Origin: Algisphaera agarilytica
Lineage (GTDB): Bacteria > Planctomycetota > Phycisphaerae > Phycisphaerales > Phycisphaeraceae
Direction: 5' to 3'
DNA: 24,000 nucleotides
Assembly (NCBI RefSeq): GCF_014207595.1
Contig: NZ_JACHGY010000001.1
Span: 3,604,212 to 3,628,211 of the forward strand
Shown here: piece after piece, positions 2,731 to 24,000 of the stretch
Layout of the letters: each line of letters begins with the position of its first letter
Numbering within the stretch: position 1 is the stretch's first letter
The notes under the pieces: model-generated
Database searches by the model: none
Seen by the model: the letters and a program-made list of their open reading frames with translations, nothing else
Told to the model about the DNA's origin: nothing
Made by a program: the position numbers and the translations under genes

Positions 2731-4275
2731 ATGAGCAGCGAATCATTGCGGCAGCAACTCTTCAACGAAATCCTCCTCGCCCGGCAGCGGGTTTACGCGG
2801 TGCGGGAGCCTACGCCGTTGGAGCGGTTGGACATCGGGACGGATGCCGAGGTCTGGGTGAAGCGTGAGGACCAGCCGCCGATTCACGCCTACAAGTGGCG
2901 GGGGGCGTACAACAACATGGCCACGCTCAGCGAAGAGCAGCGGCAGCGCGGCGTCGTCTGCGCCTCGGCGGGCAACCACGCCCAGGGCGTCGCCCTCGCG
3001 GCGGCGAAGCTGGGATGCTCGGCGACGGTATTCATGCCCCGGCCCACGCCGATGATGAAACGCAAGGCCGTGGCGCTGCACGGCGGGGATCACGTGACGG
3101 TCGAGTTGGTCGGCGACACCTACGACCAGGCCTACCACGCCGCGCGGGACTACGCCGCAGAGCACGGCCTGGCGTTTGTCCACCCCTACGACGACCTGGC
3201 GACCATGGGCGGGCAGGGCACGCTTGCGGACGAGGTGGTGATGTCGGGCACCGGGCCGTTTGATGTGGCGTATGTGCAGATCGGTGGCGGGGGGATGGCG
3301 GCGGCGGTGGCGTGTTGGCTCAAGCACTACATGCCGGGCATTCGAGTGGTCGGCGTCGAAGCGGAGGGCCAGGCCTCCATGAAGGCGGCGGTCGCCCACG
3401 GCGGCCCGGTGGAGCTCGAGAGCCTCGACATCTTCTGCGACGGCACGGCGGTGCAGCGGGCGGGCGACCTGACGTTTGAGCTGTGCCGAGAGTTGATCGA
3501 CGAGTTCATCACGGTGAGCAACGCCGAGGTGTGCAACGCGATCCGCCGGTTCTGGAACTGGCGGCGGCGGATCGTCGAGCCGGCCGGGGCGTTGGGCTTG
3601 GCGGGGTTGCTTTCGCAGCAGGACCGACTCAGCGGAAAACGCGCCCTGGCCATCACCTGCGGGGCGAACCTCGACTTCTCCCAGCTCGCGGTCATCGCGG
3701 CCGACACGGGCATCGGCGGGCAGGTGCGGCGTCACCTGCGGTTCCGCATCGACGAATCGCCCGGGGCGTTGCTCGGTCTGCTGCGGGACGTGCTGGGCGG
3801 GTGCAACATCGTGGAGTTTCTTTATGGCAAGGCCCGGGCCGAGTACGCCGAGCCCGTGATCGGGTTGGACGCTTCCGATGAAGTGCTGCAAACGGTGATG
3901 CAACGCTGCGCCGCAGTCGGCATGCCGGTCACGGATATCACCGACGGCGAAGACGTCGATTTCCGGGTCATCAACTACGACGCGTCGTTGTTCCATCAGC
4001 CCCTACTATTGCGTTACGAGTTCCCCGAGCGGGCAGGGGCGCTCAACGAATTCCTCGAAACCATCCAGCCGCGGGCGAACGTCTGCTACTTCAACTACCT
4101 CTACTCCGGCGAGCGGGTCGGGCGGGCGCTCGTGGGGCTGGAGTTCGACACGGACGGCGACCGCCAGGCCTTCCTTGAGTTGCTCGATGAACACCCCGTG
4201 CTGCGATTGCGGCACCGCGTACTCTCGGCGGAAACAACGCAGCGGATGCTCGGCCTCCCGACAGGCGGGCAATAA
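2731..4275 (+). CDS. ilvA: Biosynthetic threonine ammonia-lyase (threonine dehydratase) with C-terminal regulatory domains
   Basis: PLP-lysine region QPPIHAYKWRGAYN, ASAGNHAQGVALAAAKLG, and Gly-rich loop IGGGGMAAAVA. A C-terminal extension of about 180 aa (two ACT-like repeats) is typical of the long, Ile-regulated form. The protein is 514 aa from the ATG at 2731. The track ORF starts at GTG 2701, so the start is uncertain by 10 codons. Confidence 0.9.
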   Translation: MSSESLRQQLFNEILLARQRVYAVREPTPLERLDIGTDAEVWVKREDQPPIHAYKWRGAYNNMATLSEEQRQRGVVCASAGNHAQGVALAAAKLGCSATVFMPRPTPMMKRKAVALHGGDHVTVELVGDTYDQAYHAARDYAAEHGLAFVHPYDDLATMGGQGTLADEVVMSGTGPFDVAYVQIGGGGMAAAVACWLKHYMPGIRVVGVEAEGQASMKAAVAHGGPVELESLDIFCDGTAVQRAGDLTFELCRELIDEFITVSNAEVCNAIRRFWNWRRRIVEPAGALGLAGLLSQQDRLSGKRALAITCGANLDFSQLAVIAADTGIGGQVRRHLRFRIDESPGALLGLLRDVLGGCNIVEFLYGKARAEYAEPVIGLDASDEVLQTVMQRCAAVGMPVTDITDGEDVDFRVINYDASLFHQPLLLRYEFPERAGALNEFLETIQPRANVCYFNYLYSGERVGRALVGLEFDTDGDRQAFLELLDEHPVLRLRHRVLSAETTQRMLGLPTGGQ

Positions 4276-4309
4276 AAAACCTGCCCACGGAGGTGATCCG
4301 CGGGCAGGT
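4274..4309 (-). terminator. Rho-independent terminator of eno (possibly weakly bidirectional for ilvA)
   Basis: 12-bp stem 4279-4290 / 4298-4309 with a 7-nt loop (aggtgat). On the minus-strand RNA the single imperfect position is a G-U wobble and the stem is followed by UUUUUUAUU (A-run 4274-4279 on +). On the plus-strand RNA the same position is an A-C mismatch and only GUGUGUUGAUU follows. Confidence 0.7.
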
Positions 4310-4338
4310 GTGTTGATTCAAGAGTTGGGTTGTGGGGC

Positions 4339-5757
<1,419 letters not shown>

Positions 5758-15396: not shown

Positions 15397-15966
15397 ATGA
15401 CCGATTCGTCCCTAGCTCCCCACCAACTTTCCGAGGCGGCCCCTGTGGTGCTCGATCACGTCGGCCCGCTGCGTGAAGTCCTGGGCCAACTCGCCCGGCT
15501 CGTCGATCAACTCGACGACACCGCCTACAACACCAAGCCCGTCACAACCTACGGCGGCAGCATCGGCGGCCACGTCCGCCACTGCCTCGACCATGTGAGC
15601 GCCCTGCTCTGCGGAACCCATGGCGACCTCATCGACTACGAGGCTCGTGAACGCGGCACCGACATCGAAACCAACCCCGTCTCGGCCTGCTCCGAGCTGC
15701 AGCGCCTCGACACGGCTCTGGCCGAGCTGCCCGAAGACGTCGGCCAACTGGAGGTGACCACCTCCATCCTGCTCACCCCGTCGGGCCCCGCGCTCAAAGC
15801 CCCGTCGAGCGTGGCCCGCGAACTCGCCTTCGTGCTCAGCCACACCATCCACCACAACGCCATGATCGGCGGCATGGCCAAAGCCCTGGGCAGCGACGTC
15901 CCCGCAGACTTCGGCATGGCCCCGGGCACCCTCGAACACCAACGCAAGCGTCAAGCCCAGGCTTGA
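15397..15966 (+). CDS. DinB-family (DinB_2/YfiT-like) metal-binding four-helix-bundle protein
   Basis: 189 aa. His-triad pattern GGHVRHCLDHV ... LSHTIHHNAMIGGM is typical of the DinB superfamily. Confidence 0.7.
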   Translation: MTDSSLAPHQLSEAAPVVLDHVGPLREVLGQLARLVDQLDDTAYNTKPVTTYGGSIGGHVRHCLDHVSALLCGTHGDLIDYEARERGTDIETNPVSACSELQRLDTALAELPEDVGQLEVTTSILLTPSGPALKAPSSVARELAFVLSHTIHHNAMIGGMAKALGSDVPADFGMAPGTLEHQRKRQAQA

Positions 15967-16049: not shown

Positions 16050-16793
16050 ATGTGCACCGCCACCCTGATTCAAACCGACCCGTCCGCCCCGGCCCTCCGC
16101 CTGGTGACCAATCGCGACGAGTTGCACACCCGCCTTCCCGCCGATCCGCCGGAGATACGCACGTTCGGGGACTACCAGACGCTGCTCCCGATCGACCCGC
16201 AGAGCGACGGCACCTGGATCGCCGTCAACGAAGCGGGGCTGGTCATCACCCTGCTGAACCTCAACCCCGAGCAAGCACCGACGCCACGGCCGGGCCTGCG
16301 TAGCCGTGGGGGCGTGGTGCCATCGTTGATGGGTTGTTCGACCGTGAAGCAAGCGATCGAGATCGCAAAAGAACTGCCCACTCAGACGATGATGCCGTTC
16401 CGCTTGCTGCTTGCGGACCGAGACAACGTCGCCACGGTGCGTGCCGACGGGCAATCCGTGGCCACCGCGGTGCACCCGATTGCCGACGCCCCGGTGATGC
16501 TGACCAGCTCCGGGCTGGGCGATCACATCGTCGAAGGGCCTCGGCGTGACCTGTTTGAGAGTGCCCCGCCCCGCGACGCCGAGGCTCAGGATGCGTTCCA
16601 CCGCCACCGCTGGCCGGACCGCACGCCTGTCTCGGTCGCGATGTGCCGGGAAGACGCCCGCACCGTCAGCCGCACCGTCGTGGAGATCGACGCCCATCGG
16701 GTGCAGATGCACTACACGCCCGTCTCCATGTACGGCGGGGAAGGGGAACTCCAAGTGTTGACCTTGCCCCTGCGAGCCGAGGCCAAGGGGTGA
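16050..16793 (+). CDS. NRDE-family (TANGO2-like) protein
   Basis: The N-terminal MCTATL (Cys2) and the eponymous LVTNRDE motif sit at the expected position near residue 20. The protein is 247 aa. The stop TGA 16791-16793 overlaps the GTG 16790-16792 of the next gene. Confidence 0.8.
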   Translation: MCTATLIQTDPSAPALRLVTNRDELHTRLPADPPEIRTFGDYQTLLPIDPQSDGTWIAVNEAGLVITLLNLNPEQAPTPRPGLRSRGGVVPSLMGCSTVKQAIEIAKELPTQTMMPFRLLLADRDNVATVRADGQSVATAVHPIADAPVMLTSSGLGDHIVEGPRRDLFESAPPRDAEAQDAFHRHRWPDRTPVSVAMCREDARTVSRTVVEIDAHRVQMHYTPVSMYGGEGELQVLTLPLRAEAKG

Positions 16794-19483
16794 CCACGAT
16801 CAAGAAGCAACCCCGCAAACCTCGCCGAGCGCGTCGGCCGTTCCTGCGTCAGCGGTGGTGGAAGGTGTATGGGCTGCTGGTCGTTTTGTCGTTTGGCGTG
16901 CAAACCTACCGCAACGCCAACACGCCATTGGATGGTGAGCCGGGAACAGCGATGGTGCAGACCCCCGCGTTCACCAAGGAGGGCGGCGGGGGCGAAGCCC
17001 GGGTGGATTTCGCGTACATCGATACGGACCTCAAAGCGGGTTCCGCCGCCTCACCAGCAGATGGTGTCGAATCCGATGAACGCCCCGTGCTGATTCTCAT
17101 CCACGGCTCGCCGGGGGCGAAAAAGAATTTCAGCCTGCTGATCCCCACGCTCGAATCGCATTTCCGAGTGATCGCGCCGGACATGCCGGGCTTCGGGGAT
17201 TCGTCGAAGTGGATTCCGTCCTACAGCACCCGTGCCCACGCCCGCTACGTGCTGGAGCTCATGGACCAGCTCGAGATTGAGTCGGCCCACATCCTTGGCT
17301 TCTCCATGGGCGGCGGGGTCGCGCTCAACCTTTTCGACCTTGCGCCCGAGCGCCTCGAATCGATCATCTTCTACGGCGCGATCGGCATCCAGGAAGGCGA
17401 GGGCACCGGCGACTACGGGTTCGAACACTTCAAGTACACCGTGGGCTACGGTGCTTTGGTGGCGGCGCCCGAGTTGGTTCCGCACTTCGGCTTGCTCGGG
17501 CCCCGGTGGTTCCGCCACTCGTTTATCCGCAACTTCAACGACACGGACCAGCGGCCGATGCGCGGGTACCTCGAGGCGATGAACACGGCCGACACGCCGT
17601 TCCTGATCCTGCAGGGCTACAACGACCCGCTCGTCCCCGAGTGGACCGCCCGTCAGCACCACAACATCGTCGAGCACAGCGAACTGGTGATGTTCGACCG
17701 CTCGCACTTCATGGTGTTCGATCAAAAGGGCGCGGCGATGCTGGCCGAGGAGATCGTCCCGTTTGTCGAACGGTTCAGCACGCCCGGAGCGGTGCCGACG
17801 CGGCGGACCGTGATGGGCCCGCACTTTGAAGAAGACCAGCCCAGCATCTTGCCTGTGGCTCTGGACATCCCGCGGGGCACAAACCCGTGGTGGACGGTGG
17901 CGGTGATTTCTGCGGCGAGCTATGTGCTCGAAGACCCGGTGACGATCACGGTCGGGCTGATGATCCGGGACGGGAAGATCGATGCGTTTCTCGGCGTCTT
18001 CGCGGTGTTCATCGGCATCTTCACCGGCGACTTGTTGCTCTACCTGATGGGCGTGATTTTCGGTCGGCGGGCGCTGGCGTGGGGCCCGGTCGCCAAGCGT
18101 TTGCCCGCCCGGCACGTCGAGGCGCTTGGGCACTGGTTCGACACGCACGGCTGGTCGGCCGTGTTGGCGTCGCGGTTCCTCCCGGGGACTCGGCTGCCGC
18201 TGTACGTCGGGGCGGGGGCGCTGGGCAAGAAGCCCGGGCGGTTTGCGTTGTGGACCTTCCTGGCGGTGATGATCTGGGCCCCGGTGATGTTGCTGCTGGT
18301 GGTCTTGCTGGGCGAAGCAGCGGCGAGCCCGTTCAAGCTGCTGTTTGGTGACAGCTGGATCGCCCTGATCGGCGTGGTGATGGTGCTGTTGATGGTGGTG
18401 CGGGTTGTGATGCAGCTCCCGACCAAGCGGGGGCGGCAAGGGCTTTGGGTGAAACTCAGTCGGGTCTGGCGGTGGGAGTTCTGGCCGATGTCGCTGTTCT
18501 ATCTGCCGCTGGTGCCGTGGCTGGTCTGGTTGGCGCTGCGGTATCGGTCTACGACGGTGTGGACGCTGGCCAACCCGGGCCTGCCGGATGGCGGGGTGGT
18601 GGGTGAATCCAAAGCCGAGATCACCGCGGCGCTGTGCACGCCGACGGACGAGCACGTCCTGCCCGCGGTGCTGGTGCGTGATGCCGACGAGGCGCGGCGC
18701 GCGATGGCCGAGAAGGGCTGGTCGCTGCCCGTGATCGTGAAGCCCGATGCGGCGCAACGCGGAGCGGGGGTTCGGCTGATCGAGCCGGGCGAAGACTTCG
18801 ATGAATACTTCGGCGACTCACAGGCGCCTGCGATTTTGCAGAAGTACCACCCCGGGCCGTTCGAGGCGGGCGTGTTCTACACCCGCACGCCCGGTGAGCC
18901 GCGTGGCCGAATCTTCTCGATCACCGACAAGCACTTCCCGCACCTCACCGGCGACGGCGAGTCGACGCTGGAAGAATTGATCTGGGCCCACCCGCGCTAC
19001 CGCATGCAGGCGTCGGTCTTCCTGCAGCGGTTCGAGGACGCCAACGAACGCGTCCTGGCCGAGGGCGAAACGCTCCGTCTGGCGATGGCGGGCAACCACT
19101 GCCAGGGCACGCTGTTTGCCGATGGTGGGCATCTGATCACGCCCGAACTCGAAGCGGCTGTGGATGAGGTCGTGCAGCGGGTGGAGGGGTTCTACTTCGG
19201 CCGGCTTGATGTGCGGTACGCCGAGGTGGAGTCTTTCAAACGGGGCGAGGACTTTGCCGTGGTCGAGCTCAACGGCGTGACCAGCGAATCGACGAATATC
19301 TACGACCCCAAGTGGTCGCTATTGCGGGCGTACCGCACGCTGTTTCGCCAGTGGGCCGTCTGCTTTGCGATTGGTGATGCCAACCGAAAACGCGACGGGT
19401 TGGAGCCGCCCAAGGCCTGGGCGCTGATCAAGCGTGTGCGGCGTTACTACAAGCAGCGGCAGTTCGACCTGCACGCGGACTAG
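16790..19483 (+). CDS. Tri-domain membrane protein: N-terminal TM anchor, alpha/beta-hydrolase, DedA/VTT (SNARE-associated) membrane domain, C-terminal ATP-grasp ligase-like domain
   Basis: Track ORF 16643..19483 trimmed to GTG 16790 (GTGA overlap with the NRDE stop), giving 897 aa. It begins with a basic N-terminus and a TM helix (KKQPRKPRRARRPFLRQRWWKVYGLLVVLSFGV). The hydrolase (about 16985-17776) shows LILIHGSPGA, the nucleophile elbow GFSMGG (Ser codon 17303-17305), GYNDPLVP and DRSHFMVF. The DedA-like region (about 17876-18538) shows FTGDLLLYLMG...SRFLPGTRLPLYVGAGALG. The ATP-grasp-like region (about 18560-19480) shows LPVIVKPDAAQRGAGVRLI ... FAVVELNGVTSESTNIYD. Confidence 0.75.
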   Translation: MTTIKKQPRKPRRARRPFLRQRWWKVYGLLVVLSFGVQTYRNANTPLDGEPGTAMVQTPAFTKEGGGGEARVDFAYIDTDLKAGSAASPADGVESDERPVLILIHGSPGAKKNFSLLIPTLESHFRVIAPDMPGFGDSSKWIPSYSTRAHARYVLELMDQLEIESAHILGFSMGGGVALNLFDLAPERLESIIFYGAIGIQEGEGTGDYGFEHFKYTVGYGALVAAPELVPHFGLLGPRWFRHSFIRNFNDTDQRPMRGYLEAMNTADTPFLILQGYNDPLVPEWTARQHHNIVEHSELVMFDRSHFMVFDQKGAAMLAEEIVPFVERFSTPGAVPTRRTVMGPHFEEDQPSILPVALDIPRGTNPWWTVAVISAASYVLEDPVTITVGLMIRDGKIDAFLGVFAVFIGIFTGDLLLYLMGVIFGRRALAWGPVAKRLPARHVEALGHWFDTHGWSAVLASRFLPGTRLPLYVGAGALGKKPGRFALWTFLAVMIWAPVMLLLVVLLGEAAASPFKLLFGDSWIALIGVVMVLLMVVRVVMQLPTKRGRQGLWVKLSRVWRWEFWPMSLFYLPLVPWLVWLALRYRSTTVWTLANPGLPDGGVVGESKAEITAALCTPTDEHVLPAVLVRDADEARRAMAEKGWSLPVIVKPDAAQRGAGVRLIEPGEDFDEYFGDSQAPAILQKYHPGPFEAGVFYTRTPGEPRGRIFSITDKHFPHLTGDGESTLEELIWAHPRYRMQASVFLQRFEDANERVLAEGETLRLAMAGNHCQGTLFADGGHLITPELEAAVDEVVQRVEGFYFGRLDVRYAEVESFKRGEDFAVVELNGVTSESTNIYDPKWSLLRAYRTLFRQWAVCFAIGDANRKRDGLEPPKAWALIKRVRRYYKQRQFDLHAD

Positions 19484-19495
19484 TGTCAGGGTGTG

Positions 19496-20239
19496 TCACT
19501 GAAGCCGCTGGATGGTGGTGGCGTCGATCTTGAACCACGCCAGGTCGCCGTGCTGTTCGATGGTTCCCTCGGCCGAGATCGGGTCGGCGATGTAGGGCTC
19601 GATGGAATCGAAAACCGCCTGGCCCTCGCTGTCGGTCAGCAGGTAGAGCTTCCGCTCATCGCCCGGGGTTTTGGTGAGAAACATCGGGGGGATGCCGCCC
19701 TTGATGCAGAGCGTCGCGCACGCCTTATGGATCTTGCCCTCGCCCGGCTTCATCGCGCCGAGGTAACACTTGGGGTCGATGATCTGCCCGATGAGTTGGA
19801 AGCGGCCCTCGGGTTCAGCATCGGGTGTTGCCACCGAGGGTTCGCCGTCTGCGGCTTCGATGCCCGACTCGTTGTCCAATAGGGTGAGCATCGCTCGGCC
19901 GTCCCGCTCGACCACGTTGCCCCGAACGGTGACGCGTTGCCCGGCGTGGCTCGCCACACGGTCGCGTACGCCGGTCTTGCCCTGCGAAACCAGGAGGATG
20001 GTTTGCAGCCCGTCGTCAGCCGCGGTGAGTACCGCGGGGTACGGTTCAGCGATCAGCAGGCCGGTGTAGGCGTCGGCCTGGCTCAGGTCCCACGAGCCGG
20101 TGCCGGGGTCGTTCTGTTGTGCGGGGATGAGGCCCGCGATGAGCACGCCCGCGACAAGCAACACGGGCAAGAGCACCAGCAACCGGCCCCGGATCCCCTT
20201 GGGCACCGGGAGGTATCCGACATAGAACTCACGCTTCAT
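19496..20239 (-). CDS. N-terminally TM-anchored, predicted periplasmic protein with a conserved-looking Cys/His cluster; unknown function
   Basis: 247 aa. MKREFYVGYLPVPKGIRGRLLVLLPVLLVAGVLIAGLI is a signal anchor. The motif is IIDPKCYLGAMKPGEGKIHKACATLCIKGGIPPMF (C-x16-C-x3-C with one His). The ATG 20237-20239 overlaps the upstream Rieske gene by 11 nt. Confidence 0.6.
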   Translation of the reverse strand: MKREFYVGYLPVPKGIRGRLLVLLPVLLVAGVLIAGLIPAQQNDPGTGSWDLSQADAYTGLLIAEPYPAVLTAADDGLQTILLVSQGKTGVRDRVASHAGQRVTVRGNVVERDGRAMLTLLDNESGIEAADGEPSVATPDAEPEGRFQLIGQIIDPKCYLGAMKPGEGKIHKACATLCIKGGIPPMFLTKTPGDERKLYLLTDSEGQAVFDSIEPYIADPISAEGTIEQHGDLAWFKIDATTIQRLQ

Positions 20240-21311
20240 GGTTCGACTCCGGTGGGGGGGAGGCTTCGATCGTGGCGGGCTCGACCGCCGTGCCCGGCGG
20301 CAACGGCTCGGGGTTCACCAGGATGCGCGAGCCCTGAACGCTGACCCGGTAGGTCGGGATTTTCTCGGTGAACGGCGGCGGGGATTGACCGTTGTGCGGG
20401 AGGTATTGGTAGCCGTGCCACGGGCAGGTGAGGCAGCCGTCGACGACTTTGCCTTCGCCGAGTGGCCCGTGCTGGTGGGCGCAGACGTTGCTGACCGCCG
20501 AGACCTTGCCGTCGTATTTCAGGACGGCGATGCGTTCGCTTCCCGCGAGGGTGACGACCTTGCCGTAGCCATCTTCGATGTCGTTCACATCAGCGACATC
20601 GATCCATTCCTGGTCGTCGGTGTTCGGGGCGGCGGCATCTTTGCGCCACTCACGCCAACCCGTGATCAGGTGCAGGCCCGCGATCATGACAAAGCCCAGC
20701 ACCAGCAGCCCGATGTACAAGACACTCGGGTTGCTCTGCAACGCGCCGAGGACGACATGCATCACCAGCAGTGCATACGCCACGTAGACCAGCGTGTGCA
20801 GCGTCTTCCAGGTGCGCGGCCCGAGGTTCGCCAACCAGAAGTCGTGGCTCGTGGCGGCCATGAGGAACAGGATCAAGAGGGCGATGAAGCCCAGCGGCTG
20901 GAAGGGGAACGCGGCGATCTGGTCGTAGTTGCCGTTGCTGGTGAAGATCGAGACGATCGGGTTGACCACCCCGAAGCCGTGGTACCACAGCGTCGCAAGG
21001 GCCGCGTGGAGGAATGCGAGGATGAACATGGTGACGCCCATATGACGCCGGTTGTACAGCAGCGGCGCGAACACCCCCGGCCAGAGCCGAGCCAAGGGGC
21101 CGATGCAGAGGATCAGGTGGAGCAGGATGATCGCCGCCGTGCCGAACGCGCGGATGAGCAGCGTCATCGGCGTGATGCCGTTGTCGCCGGACAGTGCCAG
21201 CGAACTCACGACGACAAAGACGACGAGATACAGCCCCACGCCGCCCGCGAGCAGCAGGTCGTACACCTTCTTGTGCTTGTTCCATTGCACCGCGCGGTAG
21301 GCATGGCTCAT
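20229..21311 (-). CDS. Ferric-reductase-like (MsrQ/YedZ-type, 6-TM, dihaem-b) domain fused to a C-terminal Rieske [2Fe-2S] domain
   Basis: 360 aa with six hydrophobic helices and conserved-position His residues (LLHLILC, RRHMG, AFLHAAL, LHTLVYV, VMHVVLG). The C-terminal CAHQHGPLGEGKVVDGCLTCPWHGYQY is the Rieske signature CxH-x16-CxxH. The start ATG 21309-21311 overlaps the upstream stop (ATGA). Confidence 0.8.
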   Translation of the reverse strand: MSHAYRAVQWNKHKKVYDLLLAGGVGLYLVVFVVVSSLALSGDNGITPMTLLIRAFGTAAIILLHLILCIGPLARLWPGVFAPLLYNRRHMGVTMFILAFLHAALATLWYHGFGVVNPIVSIFTSNGNYDQIAAFPFQPLGFIALLILFLMAATSHDFWLANLGPRTWKTLHTLVYVAYALLVMHVVLGALQSNPSVLYIGLLVLGFVMIAGLHLITGWREWRKDAAAPNTDDQEWIDVADVNDIEDGYGKVVTLAGSERIAVLKYDGKVSAVSNVCAHQHGPLGEGKVVDGCLTCPWHGYQYLPHNGQSPPPFTEKIPTYRVSVQGSRILVNPEPLPPGTAVEPATIEASPPPESNHEA

Positions 21312-21493
21312 GGCTTGGCCTCCTGCGGGGGTGTTGCCTCGGCGGCAGGCGGGCTGGTTTCTTCAATCGCGATCGGCCCCTCGGAGATCGCTTCGGGTGG
21401 CCGTTGGCTTAGTCCGAGCGCGATCCCGATACCGACCAGCGGAGCAAGGAGTAACCACACCAGGACATGACGGCGGCGGGCTTGGCGCTTCAT
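21308..21493 (-). CDS. Mini membrane protein (61 aa, one TM, acidic Pro-rich tail)
   Basis: Track ORF 21308..21724(-) trimmed to the ATG 21491-21493: MKRQARRRHVLVWLLLAPLVGIGIALGLSQRPPEAISEG.... ATGA overlaps are present at both ends (21490-21493 and 21308-21311). Confidence 0.5.
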   Translation of the reverse strand: MKRQARRRHVLVWLLLAPLVGIGIALGLSQRPPEAISEGPIAIEETSPPAAEATPPQEAKP

Positions 21494-21738
21494 GCTTCGC
21501 TCCCCGCTGCGTTGTGATTCGAGACTAGCTTCCTTACCAGCAAAGGCCAGAGCGCGGCCGTTCCCGGCAGGATGAGCAAGCGGAAACCCCACGGCCCGTC
21601 TTTCGCGGCCGGATCGAGCCGTCCCACGCCGGTGAATACAAACCACACCGCGAACAGCAGTCCAATGCCCGCGTACGCCCCCAGGCCGATGACGATGTAA
21701 TGTGCCCAACCCATGACAGACCAACCTTCAACATCCAC
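21490..21738 (-). CDS. Mini membrane protein (74-82 aa, two TM), first gene of the Rieske operon
   Basis: The start is GTG 21738 or ATG 21714 (MGWAHYIVIGLGAYAGIGLLFAVWFVF ... FRLLILPGTAALWPLLV). The stop overlaps the next start (ATGA). I recognised no family. Confidence 0.5.
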   Translation of the reverse strand: MDVEGWSVMGWAHYIVIGLGAYAGIGLLFAVWFVFTGVGRLDPAAKDGPWGFRLLILPGTAALWPLLVRKLVSNHNAAGSEA

Positions 21739-21808: not shown

Positions 21809-22279
21809 ATGATGATGCGATATCAAATCTTTTTCGTGTTGTGTTTACTCATGACGGCCCCTCAAGCTTTGAGCCAAGCCGACGGAAACGTCGATAAGAA
21901 CGGCGTGGCGATCAAGGGCTACGACCCCGTGGCCTACTTCCCCGACCACGGCGGCGAGGCGACCAAAGGCAAGAAGGACATCACCGCCGAGTACAACGGG
22001 GCGGTCTATCGTTTTGCCAGTGAAGCCAACCGGGACGTGTTCCTGAGCGATCCCGAGGCCTACGCCCCGGCCTACGGCGGGTGGTGTGCCTACGCCATGG
22101 CCGACGGGAAACCCGTGACCGTGGACCCCAAACGCTTCGAGGTTCACGACGGCCGGTTGTTCTTGTTCTACCGCGACTGGTTTACCGACACGCTCAAGCC
22201 CTGGCAGAAAGACCGCGACACTCTTCGGGACCGGGCAGACCGGGCGTGGAGTGAGATCGTGGAAGAATCGGAAGGTTGA
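21809..22279 (+). CDS. Secreted YHS-domain protein
   Basis: Signal peptide MMMRYQIFFVLCLLMTAPQALSQA, followed by GYDPVAYF...G......Y.GAVYRFASEANRDVFLSDPEAYAPAYGGWCAYAMA, the typical YHS-domain pattern. 156 aa. A small 7-bp hairpin (22292-22308) follows the stop. Confidence 0.8.
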   Translation: MMMRYQIFFVLCLLMTAPQALSQADGNVDKNGVAIKGYDPVAYFPDHGGEATKGKKDITAEYNGAVYRFASEANRDVFLSDPEAYAPAYGGWCAYAMADGKPVTVDPKRFEVHDGRLFLFYRDWFTDTLKPWQKDRDTLRDRADRAWSEIVEESEG

Positions 22280-22326: not shown

Positions 22327-24000
22327 TTATTCGGTCACGCCGTGGTGTTTGCGGTAGGCGTCCCATGCCTCAGCCCCGAAGTAACGCTTGCCGAGCGCCT
22401 TTGGCATGTTGGGTATGTCGATAAGCATCAGGCCGTCGAGCACGTTGCCGAATTCGGGGTCGACGTTGAAACCCAGGAACTGGGCGTTGAGCTTGAGGTA
22501 CTGCCGCAGCAGCACGGGCATGGGTTTGCCGTCCGCTTCGATCTCACGGACCAGGTGGCCGACTTCTTCGAGGTTGGAGGCCACGGTCGAGAACGCCGCG
22601 CGGTCCCAGTCGCGGGTACGCCGACGCGAGGGCGGGTTCTTGGGGCGGATCTGGCTGGCGAGGTTTGGCAGGAACCGGTGCAGCTGCAGGAACGTCATCA
22701 GCAGGTTCTTCGACATCGACGTGTAGTTCGCGCTGATGCTCACCGGGCCGAAGAGGTGGCGGTACCGCGGGTGCAGCGCGGCGTAGGCGGCGATGCCTTT
22801 CCACAGCAGCTGCAACGGTTGGTAGCTGCGCTGGTAGTCGGGGTGGACGAACGACCGCCCCAGCTCGAGCGCGGGGGTGACCTGCTTGATGAGTTTTTTG
22901 CGGAAATTGAAGAGGGTGCTGGTGTAGAGCCCCTTGACGCCGAGGCTGGGCAGGATTTCGTCGGTCGGGCCCATGCGGTAGCTGCCCACGATCTCGGCGG
23001 TGTTGCGGTTCCAGACGAGCAGGTGCAGGTAGTGGTCGTCGAAGCGGTCGAGGTCACAGGCTTTGCCCGAGCCCTCGCCGACCTGGCGGAAGGTGATCTC
23101 GCGGAGTCGGCCGATCTCGCGGAGCAGGGCGGACATCTGCGGTCGTCGGGCGTAGAGCACGTCGTACTCGCCGCTCTGCATCAGGGTTTGCTGCGGGGGC
23201 AGGGCGCCGATCTCCTCGGCCAGGACCTCGGGCGATTCGGGCGGGATGATCGGGGCGTATTTGGAGTCGTCGGGCCGGGCCGATAGGTCGATCTGCCGGT
23301 GACGTGGACGCAGCAGGTACGTCCGCACCCGCAGGTAGTTGGTGAGTTGTTCACGGCCCTCGAGCTTGCTGGTACGCTCGGGCGGGATCGGGGCGCCGAT
23401 GACCATGGGTACCCGTGATCGGCGGCGCTTGAGCAGTTCGTGCGGCAGCATCGCCGAACGCAGGGTGGGGTGGACGAACCCGGCGATCTGGAAGAGGTTG
23501 CTGTTGCGTCCATCGAAGAACACCGGCACCACGGTCGCGCCGGTCCGTTGGATGATCCGCGCAGTCGCGCTCTGCCAGGGCGGGTCGGCGACGTTGCGTT
23601 GACGCAGGGTCAGGTGCGAGACCGCGCCGGAGGGGAACACGCCCAGGGCGTGACCGTCTCCGACCCACGACATCGACTGCCGGATGGCCGCGGCGTTGAG
23701 CCGCTTGGCCTGGGCGTCTTCGCCGAAAACATCCACGAAGAAGAACGTGTCGCGCAGCTCGGGGATGCACGAGAGCATCTCGTTGGCCAGCAGTTTCACG
23801 TCCGGCCGAACCCGACGGAGCAGCGATGCGAGGATGATCCCCTCGATCCCGCCGAACGGGTGATTCGCCACCACAACCAACGGCCCCTCCTTCGGGATCG
23901 CCTCGAGCGTTTCTTCGTTCAGGTCCAGGACGATCCGCATCACCTCGAGCGCCTTGTCGGCGAAGTGACGCTCCTGCCCCGGGTCGTGCGCGATGATGTT
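22327..24000 (-). CDS. OlsF-like bifunctional acyltransferase (N-terminal PlsC-type O-acyltransferase plus C-terminal OlsB/GNAT-type N-acyltransferase); 5' end outside the window
   Basis: The N-terminal part has VVVANHPFGGIEGIIL...GVFPSGAVSH (acyltransferase H-x4-[DE] and G blocks). The C-terminal part has LREITFRQVGEGSGKACDLDRFDDHYLHLLVWN...EIVGSYRMG...LELGRSFV (OlsB/hemolysin-like GNAT pattern). The frame stays open from 23943 to the window edge (..NIIAHDPGQERHFADKALEV-MRIV..), so the true start is probably beyond 24000. Confidence 0.7.
   Translation of the reverse strand, partial: NIIAHDPGQERHFADKALEVMRIVLDLNEETLEAIPKEGPLVVVANHPFGGIEGIILASLLRRVRPDVKLLANEMLSCIPELRDTFFFVDVFGEDAQAKRLNAAAIRQSMSWVGDGHALGVFPSGAVSHLTLRQRNVADPPWQSATARIIQRTGATVVPVFFDGRNSNLFQIAGFVHPTLRSAMLPHELLKRRRSRVPMVIGAPIPPERTSKLEGREQLTNYLRVRTYLLRPRHRQIDLSARPDDSKYAPIIPPESPEVLAEEIGALPPQQTLMQSGEYDVLYARRPQMSALLREIGRLREITFRQVGEGSGKACDLDRFDDHYLHLLVWNRNTAEIVGSYRMGPTDEILPSLGVKGLYTSTLFNFRKKLIKQVTPALELGRSFVHPDYQRSYQPLQLLWKGIAAYAALHPRYRHLFGPVSISANYTSMSKNLLMTFLQLHRFLPNLASQIRPKNPPSRRRTRDWDRAAFSTVASNLEEVGHLVREIEADGKPMPVLLRQYLKLNAQFLGFNVDPEFGNVLDGLMLIDIPNMPKALGKRYFGAEAWDAYRKHHGVTE

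Follow-up and report, generated by a model that had tools for sequence, protein, structure and literature searches.

A DedA–ATP-grasp membrane fusion of Algisphaera agarilytica closes a widespread operon and is a candidate for tailoring and translocating ornithine-lipid-type membrane lipids

In this work, we analysed 24,000 nucleotides of the Algisphaera agarilytica genome (contig NZ_JACHGY010000001.1, positions 3,604,212 to 3,628,211), here called the window, and all coordinates below are positions in it. The window encodes an 897-amino-acid membrane protein in which an α/β-hydrolase, a DedA/VTT membrane domain and an ATP-grasp ligase domain are fused, preceded by the gene of an NRDE/TANGO2-family protein. 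A first-pass annotation had described the fusion as a candidate self-contained machine; instead, it closes a conserved operon. The core unit is a three-gene operon for a DinB-like protein, the NRDE protein and, in last position, a DedA::ATP-grasp membrane protein, and the window locus is the Phycisphaerae form of this widespread operon, with an added N-terminal anchor and hydrolase. Because the operon often lies beside genes that make aminolipids, the module probably modifies and moves such lipids, and we give slightly better than even chances to the proposal that it tailors and translocates ornithine-lipid-type, i.e., acyloxyacyl amino acid, membrane lipids. The proposal builds on the observed domain identities, on residue, fusion and operon conservation, and on the adjacency to and co-occurrence with aminolipid synthases.

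The operon was mapped by tblastn in 80 related loci, with neighbouring genes counted within 6 kb of the ATP-grasp gene. The order NRDE, hydrolase if present, DedA and ATP-grasp on one strand was almost universal. In the window, the NRDE stop codon TGA (16791-16793) is overlapped by 4 nt (GTGA) by the fusion's GTG start (16790-16792), which follows a GAGG 8 nt upstream and opens the frame that runs to 19483; both the coordinates and the overlap in the first-pass annotation agree exactly with the open reading frame (ORF) map and the sequence. In 72 of 80 loci, NRDE directly precedes the membrane-protein gene in the same orientation; of the remaining eight, three have no upstream sequence. An overlap of the same type (1-4 nt) joins the NRDE stop to the nearest membrane-protein start in 53 of 69 related loci. 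Directly 5' of NRDE, a DinB homologue on the same strand was present in 70 of 80 loci. The coupling to NRDE is hence real and kept across phyla, and at times it becomes a physical fusion, as in homologue P0027, where the NRDE domain directly precedes the first helix of the hydrolase–DedA–ATP-grasp protein. A scan for promoters and terminators gave nothing above chance.

The substrate proposal comes from the genes around the operon. The window itself carries an OlsF-like gene that combines, in one protein, a PlsC-type acyltransferase (Pfam Acyltransferase, PF01553, E 1.1e-8; Acyltransf_2, PF19576, 6e-14; residues 10-212) with an OlsB-type GNAT domain (Acetyltransf_5, PF13444, 3e-25; residues 280-380), a domain make-up that predicts an ornithine-lipid synthase. 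OlsF-like homologues were present in 31 of the 80 loci, including Vicinamibacterales (Acidobacteriota). In more distant Planctomycetota, OlsB-like (PF13444) and OlsA-like (PF01553) genes form overlapping operons with the fusion, in the order OlsB, OlsA, fusion at locus L108, AMP-ligase, OlsB, OlsA, fusion at L101, and OlsB, OlsA, DinB, NRDE, fusion, YHS at L105. At L113, OlsB, DinB and NRDE stand together, 10 kb from the DedA::ATP-grasp gene. Moreover, an α/β-hydrolase (OlsI-like) and a GH3 gene (OlsH-like) lie directly 5' of the operon at L112, and a GH3 (OlsH-like) and α/β-hydrolase (OlsI-like) pair follows directly downstream at L037 and L045; the OlsI/OlsH pair of Singulisphaera consists of an α/β-hydrolase and a GH3-family protein (PMC12493201; PMC12971839). 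The first-pass annotation had left the substrate as an envelope lipid or carrier. Adjacency to three non-homologous synthase systems narrows this to ornithine-lipid-type aminolipids, for which we infer the chemistry below.

We also compared 301 mutually related Planctomycetota genomes, 32 with and 269 without the module. Of those with it, 23 had a PF13444 match and the other nine a GH3 gene, compared with 106 of 269 genomes without the module that had either. In 14 of the 23 genomes with both matches, PF13444 lay 3-5 kb from the ATP-grasp domain. An obligatory OlsF was rejected, as OlsF-like proteins at E ≤ 1e-30 were found in only 8 of the 32 module genomes; the link is with aminolipid synthases in general and not with OlsF alone. 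An apparent OlsA–hydrolase–DedA–ATP-grasp fusion at L108, a 1159-amino-acid open frame, was likewise rejected, since the genes are separate and abutting. At L101, the gene that heads the OlsB–OlsA–fusion operon (3685-5409) encodes an AMP-dependent synthetase/ligase (PF00501, 8.2e-94), which could be a source of activated fatty acid. In Vibrio cholerae, the putative VCA0649-VCA0646 operon ends in OlsF; exact-match searches of genome contigs with published primer sequences gave no match.

The fusion itself is kept in a large protein family. More than 100 full-length relatives (800-1120 amino acids, 47-88% identity) were retrieved in a protein search; they come from many independent assemblies, the nearest being from metagenome-assembled genomes of Phycisphaerae. 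A scan with one genome per species gave 293 loci, and HMMER with the ATP-grasp domain gave 1118 clusters (50% identity) at E ≤ 1e-30. As the fusion is conserved across hundreds of independently assembled proteins, an assembly or frameshift artefact, considered in the first-pass annotation, is ruled out. The family falls into length classes of about 370 amino acids (ATP-grasp with the hydrophobic helix only), 540 (DedA and ATP-grasp), 880 (hydrolase, DedA and ATP-grasp) and 1100 (NRDE fused too, as in P0027). Among the 80 loci, the hydrolase was encoded in the same frame in 30 and missing from it in 35, so that about half of the family lacks it. In a maximum-likelihood tree of the ATP-grasp domain, whose bootstrap is not fully settled and in which a few 'absent' hydrolase labels are truncated contigs, about 12 hydrolase changes are needed, and well-supported branches enforce at least seven of these; the window lies within a 23-member clade (support 98/97) whose members all have the hydrolase. 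DedA::ATP-grasp is thus the core, and the hydrolase is an accessory that was repeatedly gained or lost. Of the cycle of making, flipping and trimming proposed from the sequence, trimming is therefore not a core step. At loci L039 (5869-6990) and L098 (5815-6990), the gene after NRDE encodes an ATP-grasp protein of about 373-391 amino acids in which the DedA domain was not detected. These ORFs fit the 370-amino-acid class; they may have a DedA partner encoded at another locus or may not need one.

All four domain assignments of the first-pass annotation hold, those of NRDE, hydrolase and DedA by Pfam and that of ATP-grasp by structure and profile. The motifs it quoted are all present, i.e., GFSMGG (Ser172), NDP (Asp279), SHF (His306), SRFLPGTRLPLYVGAGALG, VIVKPDAAQRGAGV and VELNGVTSE. 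For the ATP-grasp domain, sequence-only tests were weak. No Pfam model scored above its cut-off (best CPSase_L_D2, 15.6 vs 19.8 bits), the best NCBIfam model, cyanophycin synthetase, reached 20 bits against a cut-off of 850, and phmmer against the PDB stayed at E 0.45. The assignment hence draws on profile and structure comparisons. The profile, made from ten homologues, matched almost only ATP-grasp enzymes in the PDB, with cyanophycin synthase at the top (E 0.002) over 200 positions (55-255). An AlphaFold model built on 34 sequences reached a predicted local distance difference test score (pLDDT) of 89.2 and a predicted template modelling score (pTM) of 0.87. Its best Foldseek match was the G domain of cyanophycin synthetase 1 (7wae_A, E 2.5e-11, probability 1.0, TMq 0.55-0.58), followed by CphA2, GshF and the D-Ala-D-Ala ligases Ddl (probability 1.0), and the best 50 of 486 PDB matches at E ≤ 1e-3 were all ATP-grasp enzymes. 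Judged by its modelled structure, the domain is a genuine ATP-grasp that falls within no curated family. The concern that it might not be an ATP-grasp is thus answered: the curated models miss it, but profile, AlphaFold and Foldseek establish the fold.

Conservation of the catalytic core agrees with these matches. In alignments of 34 and of 10 sequences, K651 (in KPD), D807 and E826-x-N828 were invariant and aligned to cyanophycin synthetase motifs, and Asn769-His-x-Gln-Gly and Arg805-x-Asp807-x-Arg809 were conserved as well. With cyanophycin synthetases CphA1/CphA2, GshF and RimK-type enzymes, the domain has in common the KP...G strand, a 'tGDG..T..eLi' insert and the E-x-N site for magnesium; in the reaction of these enzymes, a C-terminal carboxylate is phosphorylated and receives an amino acid. 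The window protein is nevertheless not a cyanophycin synthetase. Only the G-like ATP-grasp core aligns, at about 17% identity, the N domain and the Mur-ligase-like M domain are missing, and Pfam finds no Mur-ligase domain. In place of the usual N-terminal subdomain, the protein has a hydrophobic helix close to the membrane (residues 564-585) that is tied to DedA. This Trp/Pro-rich helix has the consensus 'EFWPxWxFYLPLVPWLxWLxxRYRS', was modelled with a pLDDT of 92-98 and follows a loop of net charge +5. It is probably membrane-interfacial and could guide the lipid head group into the ligase.

The membrane domain is a DedA protein by match to VTT_dom (PF09335, 2.8e-14, 54.1 bits vs a gathering threshold of 33.9, residues 382-503). 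The tip of its first re-entrant hairpin is formed by Glu381-Asp382, and the second hairpin, SRFLPGTR, contributes Arg462 and Arg468; all four residues were invariant in the 33 full-length homologues over which residues of the fusion were counted. With the DedA transporters UptA, YqjA/YghB and PetA it shares a VTT match above cut-off, two hairpins with three transmembrane (TM) helices, the acidic tip and the two arginines. Acidic tip and R-x5-R spacing are the residue criteria of the COG0586 DedA subfamily of Todor et al., whose members are described as proton-coupled and phosphate-binding and whose two arginines are proposed as ligands of the phosphate group in undecaprenyl phosphate (bioRxiv 10.1101/2023.01.04.522824). 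Described fusions of COG0586 are with rhodanese and PAP2 only (bioRxiv 10.1101/2023.01.04.522824); one with an ATP-grasp ligase or an α/β-hydrolase, as in the 897-amino-acid protein, is not among them.

The invariant tip and arginines of the COG0586 type, together with UptA as the closest NCBIfam model (1.2e-11), could also point to a polyprenyl-phosphate-linked substrate such as lipid II or an undecaprenyl glycan. DedA would then be an undecaprenyl-phosphate flippase, and the ATP-grasp domain would amidate or extend a stem-peptide or uronic-acid carboxylate. Ddl and related ATP-grasp ligases do serve peptidoglycan precursor synthesis. We nevertheless hold such a substrate to be quite unlikely. 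The UptA score (45.1 bits) is far under its cut-off of 250 bits, as is that of PRK10847 (20.7 vs 236 bits), the neighbourhoods contain no recurring cell-wall or polysaccharide genes, and there would be no role for either the aminolipid synthases or a lipid-amide cysteine N-terminal-nucleophile (Cys-Ntn) partner.

The N-terminal part of the fusion carries the added hydrolase. Abhydrolase_1 matches above its Pfam cut-off (4.8e-29, 102.2 bits), Abhydrolase_6 matches as well (3.9e-15), and Ser172 (codon 17303-17305), within a G-x-S-x-G motif, Asp279 (17624-17626) and His306 (17705-17707) form a triad that, like the HG oxyanion motif, was invariant in 33 of 33 homologues. These features place the domain in the α/β-hydrolase fold. 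That it is an OlsI orthologue was not supported, as the two proteins are 23% identical and the match is a generic α/β-hydrolase one. Ahead of it, residues 1-22 contain ten lysines or arginines and precede a TM helix, and hydrolase-bearing homologues keep an arginine-rich tail and 'RWWxxYLxLLxAS'. Because basic tail and first TM helix are conserved, translation must start upstream of the ATG at MVQTPAF, which the first-pass annotation had considered as the true start. A simple hydropathy scan of the fusion missed the first TM helix and the hairpins.

From charge counts and published topology, we infer that the tail lies inside and that the chain crosses the membrane to an outside hydrolase, enters the first hairpin from outside and crosses back to a cytoplasmic loop with the second hairpin, two further TM helices and a cytoplasmic ATP-grasp domain. 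By the positive-inside rule, the loop between DedA TM2 and TM3 has 10 lysines or arginines vs two acidic residues, and the loop after the last DedA TM helix six vs one (+5). For E. coli YqjA, cysteine accessibility places a pre-hairpin residue and the first hairpin in the periplasm and the central loop and C-terminus in the cytoplasm, i.e., N-out/C-in (bioRxiv 10.1101/2021.10.18.464800). This arrangement would be consistent with the ATP need at the fusion's C-terminus, with NRDE, whose Met has to be removed in the cytoplasm and which in P0027 precedes the first helix as a fused domain, and with the hydrolase-less homologues, which have a short uncharged tail directly ahead of the first hairpin. 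The topology suggested in the first-pass annotation, with the hydrolase outside, the ligase inside and between them a DedA domain, which retains the transport residues, thus fits positive-inside counts and YqjA, although as a predicted arrangement. At L060 (4654-6990, Gemmata sp. IIL30), NRDE and DedA::ATP-grasp form one 778-amino-acid frame lacking the hydrolase; no obvious extra TM helix lies between NRDE and DedA, so that the N-terminus of DedA would face the wrong side of the membrane. Either a sequencing error or a genuine fusion of another topology may explain this single frame.

The NRDE protein matched Pfam TANGO2 (PF05742, 1.4e-12, 48.8 bits, cut-off 22.6). While phmmer against the PDB gave no match, so that a fold search was needed, its AlphaFold model (pLDDT 95.4) was closest to human TANGO2 (9bwa/8sv7, E about 3e-11), followed by acyl-CoA:isopenicillin-N acyltransferase, penicillin V acylase and bile-salt hydrolases. 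The N-terminus reads M/V-C-T in 63 of 63 homologues with a placeable start, and C2, T3, R22, D23, E24, R28, N70 and S85-R86-G87 are invariant. Pfam match, Cys after Met, NRDE motif and αββα fold thus assign it to the TANGO2/NRDE family, and from the M-C-T start, the invariant NRDE motif and the fold matches we predict it to be a Cys-Ntn enzyme. It resembles human TANGO2 and Cys-Ntn enzymes such as isopenicillin-N acyltransferase, penicillin V acylase, bile-salt hydrolase and acid ceramidase in fold and N-terminal Cys, and TANGO2 in the NRDE motif as well. However, it is about 15% identical to human TANGO2 and shares its operon with a membrane ligase, for which eukaryotes have no equivalent. 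For human TANGO2, a role as a Cys-Ntn hydrolase that acts on fatty-acyl derivatives was proposed, and its cavity is amphipathic and of fatty-acyl size (PMC13044924); the protein binds acyl-CoA (PMC11867700). The DinB-like protein (Pfam DinB_2, 1.9e-6) has 14 residues invariant in 70 of 70 sequences (H59, R61, H62, D65, H66, Y81, R84, R86, E91, R141, E142, H149, H152, H153), six of which are histidines.

DinB-fold proteins include thiol S-transferases, and GshF is among the top structural matches of the ligase. The module could thus be read as an export system for a soluble peptide or thiol, with a glutathione-synthetase-like ligase, a DinB thiol transferase, an NRDE amidohydrolase and DedA as exporter, which would serve periplasmic redox balance together with its Rieske/ferric-reductase, YHS and redoxin neighbours (ferric-reductase/Rieske in 26 of 80, the 247-amino-acid anchored protein in 24 of 80 and YHS in 19 of 80 loci, with secreted redoxins nearby). 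We judge this very improbable. The ligase is welded to the membrane domain by a conserved hydrophobic helix and has no soluble N-terminal substrate domain of the usual kind, known DedA transporters carry lipids and not solutes (bioRxiv 10.1101/2023.01.04.522824), and the TANGO2 cavity is amphipathic and of fatty-acyl size (PMC13044924). The linkage to aminolipid synthases would be left unexplained.

For ornithine-lipid-type substrates, the domains and neighbours suggest the following order of events; substrate and individual chemical steps are, like the topology, deduced and not observed. The neighbouring synthase, OlsF in the window and OlsB with OlsA or OlsH with OlsI elsewhere, would make an aminolipid with a free head-group carboxylate. 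At the cytoplasmic face, the membrane-tethered ATP-grasp domain would convert a carboxylate, most plausibly the lipid's own α-carboxylate, to an acyl phosphate and then ligate an amine, i.e., an amino acid, taurine or similar. We favour the lipid α-carboxylate because it resembles the peptide C-terminus used by the G domain of cyanophycin synthetase, the closest structural relative. DedA, in which the acidic tip of the first hairpin and both arginines of the proton-coupled DedA flippases are retained, would then move the lipid to the outer leaflet. In the window variant, the periplasmic hydrolase might deacylate or otherwise trim the lipid. NRDE, kept at a fixed ratio by the start/stop overlap, could hydrolyse a fatty-acyl amide of the same lipid or serve as an acyltransferase on it at the cytoplasmic face, so as to turn over or edit the lipid or exchange its acyl groups, and the DinB-like protein would be a metal-dependent accessory. 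Only tentatively, and with less than even confidence, do we propose the specific combination of an ATP-grasp-dependent pathway that extends or amidates an aminolipid head group and exports the product via its own DedA domain, with NRDE as lipid-amide hydrolase or acyltransferase. If this view of NRDE is true, the operon would give the TANGO2 family its first biochemical context and a genetically testable bacterial model of a human disease protein.

Several points weigh against an aminolipid module. The co-occurrence in 32 of 32 genomes is soft, since GH3 genes are widespread (found in 99 of 301 genomes) and not necessarily OlsH, and since the genomes are related. Adjacency is not universal: Gemmataceae-type loci show no synthase within 6 kb, and genomes G001, G136 and G157 carry their OlsF-like gene elsewhere. 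NRDE and DinB are not obligatory everywhere, as neither was detected at E ≤ 1e-4 in L101, L103, L104, L108, L109 and L111, so that the parts may not work in a set sequence on a single molecule. These six loci, from several Planctomycetota families, combine hydrolase–DedA–ATP-grasp with an OlsB-like gene, and OlsA-like was also confirmed in L101 and L108. The hydrolase domain could be an acyltransferase, as OlsI is. No family member has an established product, substrate or activity. Finally, the DedA domain retains its phosphate-type arginines, whereas aminolipids carry no phosphate.

Such arginines would suit a phosphate-bearing lipid, and an MprF-like phospholipid modification is conceivable, in which ATP-grasp adds an amino acid or small acid to phosphatidylglycerol, phosphatidylethanolamine or phosphatidylserine, DedA flips the product and the hydrolase removes the addition. 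The synthase genes would then adjoin only through shared membrane-stress remodelling. MprF and periplasmic aminoacyl-phosphatidylglycerol hydrolases follow the same logic of making, flipping and trimming. An extracytoplasmic function (ECF) sigma factor with a putative anti-sigma factor by the L112 operon, and ECF sigma factors at 19 loci, would fit a stress regulon. We still regard phospholipid modification as unlikely, as it explains neither the three non-homologous synthase systems in overlapping operons with the fusion nor the OlsB/F-type or GH3 gene in every sampled module genome. MprF with AcvB/VirJ and PA0919-type hydrolases is analogous in joining a cytoplasmic head-group enzyme to a flippase, with a periplasmic α/β-hydrolase that reverses or trims the modification. 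In contrast, MprF uses aminoacyl-tRNA, a GNAT-like synthase and a non-DedA flippase, while the window protein would use ATP and ATP-grasp, the two being related neither in sequence nor in fold; its likely substrate is an aminolipid and not phosphatidylglycerol. Neither MprF domain (LPG synthase C-terminal, flippase TM) gave a Pfam or NCBIfam match in the fusion at E ≤ 0.1.

An aminolipid-tailoring module also has partial precedents. The tailoring genes olsC, olsD, olsE and olsG likewise adjoin the synthase and their products modify the finished ornithine lipid, whereas no ATP-grasp, DedA, Ntn or DinB protein is among the known tailoring enzymes. Glutathionylspermidine synthetase/amidase couples an ATP-grasp amide ligase stoichiometrically to a Cys amidase that can undo the amide. 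The window operon similarly pairs an ATP-grasp ligase with a putative cysteine-nucleophile amidase; in the known enzyme, however, the amidase is a CHAP and not an Ntn domain, the substrates are soluble and a membrane domain is missing. Cerilipin formation in Gluconobacter cerinus involves an ATP-dependent amide on the head-group carboxylate, a reaction feasible for ATP-grasp, and taurine transfer to the ornithine-lipid carboxylate is ATP-dependent with no gene known (PMC12971839). The ATP-grasp domain thus represents a kind of enzyme that could amidate aminolipid head groups, an ATP-dependent activity that has lacked a gene since it became known in the 1970s.

Full-text searches of the literature for DedA, ATP-grasp and TANGO2 together, and the OlsHI paper, gave no description of the module, and the view that the three-domain architecture is uncharacterised holds in the searchable literature. 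The module spans the ATP-grasp, DedA, α/β-hydrolase and TANGO2 superfamilies and belongs to no characterised family within any of them. Its ATP-grasp family, with more than 1000 sequence clusters across Planctomycetota, Acidobacteriota and other phyla, contains no functionally characterised member, and the same holds for DedA::ATP-grasp fusions. In the module, DedA is joined to a definite type of enzyme and linked to a probable class of lipid, which could help to settle what DedA proteins carry. A bacterial TANGO2 homologue in a fixed-ratio operon with membrane-lipid enzymes also makes the disputed function of human TANGO2 addressable by bacterial genetics and lipidomics. Coordinates of the features are compiled in Table 1; structure models cover the single ATP-grasp and NRDE domains.

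Table 1. Features of the operon and the neighbouring synthase gene in the window
Feature	Position	Strand	Basis
DinB-like metalloprotein, first gene of the operon	15397..15966	+	Pfam DinB_2
NRDE/TANGO2-family protein, predicted Cys-Ntn hydrolase or acyltransferase	16050..16793	+	Pfam TANGO2, AlphaFold/Foldseek
GTGA start/stop overlap of fusion and NRDE	16790..16793	+	sequence reading
Basic cytoplasmic tail (residues 1-22) and first TM helix (residues 23-40), predicted	16790..16909	+	sequence, homologue conservation
α/β-Hydrolase domain, predicted periplasmic	17078..17728	+	Pfam Abhydrolase_1, Abhydrolase_6
DedA/VTT membrane domain with two re-entrant hairpins and three TM helices	17882..18427	+	Pfam VTT_dom
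Trp/Pro-rich hydrophobic helix from DedA to ATP-grasp	18479..18544	+	consensus, model
ATP-grasp ligase domain, predicted cytoplasmic	18500..19483	+	AlphaFold, Foldseek, PDB profile
OlsF-like bifunctional aminolipid synthase (predicted), neighbour	22327..23943	-	Pfam

Further genes recur around the operon. Between the fusion and OlsF, and convergent with the fusion, the minus strand of the window (19496-21738) carries genes for a small TM protein, a ferric-reductase-like/Rieske protein and a 247-amino-acid anchored protein, homologues of which were found in 21-26 of the 80 loci. At L102, L105, L107, L109 and L115, this redox cluster lies on the same strand directly 5' of OlsB or DinB, which points to a redox reaction in the same pathway, possibly the oxidation or hydroxylation of a lipid. 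It is followed in the window by a gene for a secreted YHS-domain protein (21809-22279, plus strand; Pfam YHS, 8.4e-9), which recurs by the module in 19 of 80 loci, often right after the ATP-grasp stop codon (L021, L022, L105, L107) and at times fused to a redoxin-like domain (L074, 2609-3547, 312 amino acids).

The sigma factor and putative anti-sigma factor mentioned above (L112, 2778-4390) directly precede the OlsI/OlsH–DinB–NRDE–fusion operon, and the ECF sigma family in the flanks of the 19 loci is exemplified by L076 (8644-9279); these neighbours hint at envelope-stress control. In the flanks of L021-L100, a secreted peroxiredoxin-like family recurs at 14 loci and a tandem glyoxalase/VOC family at 15 (e.g., L033, 7172-7756, and L086, 9856-10911).

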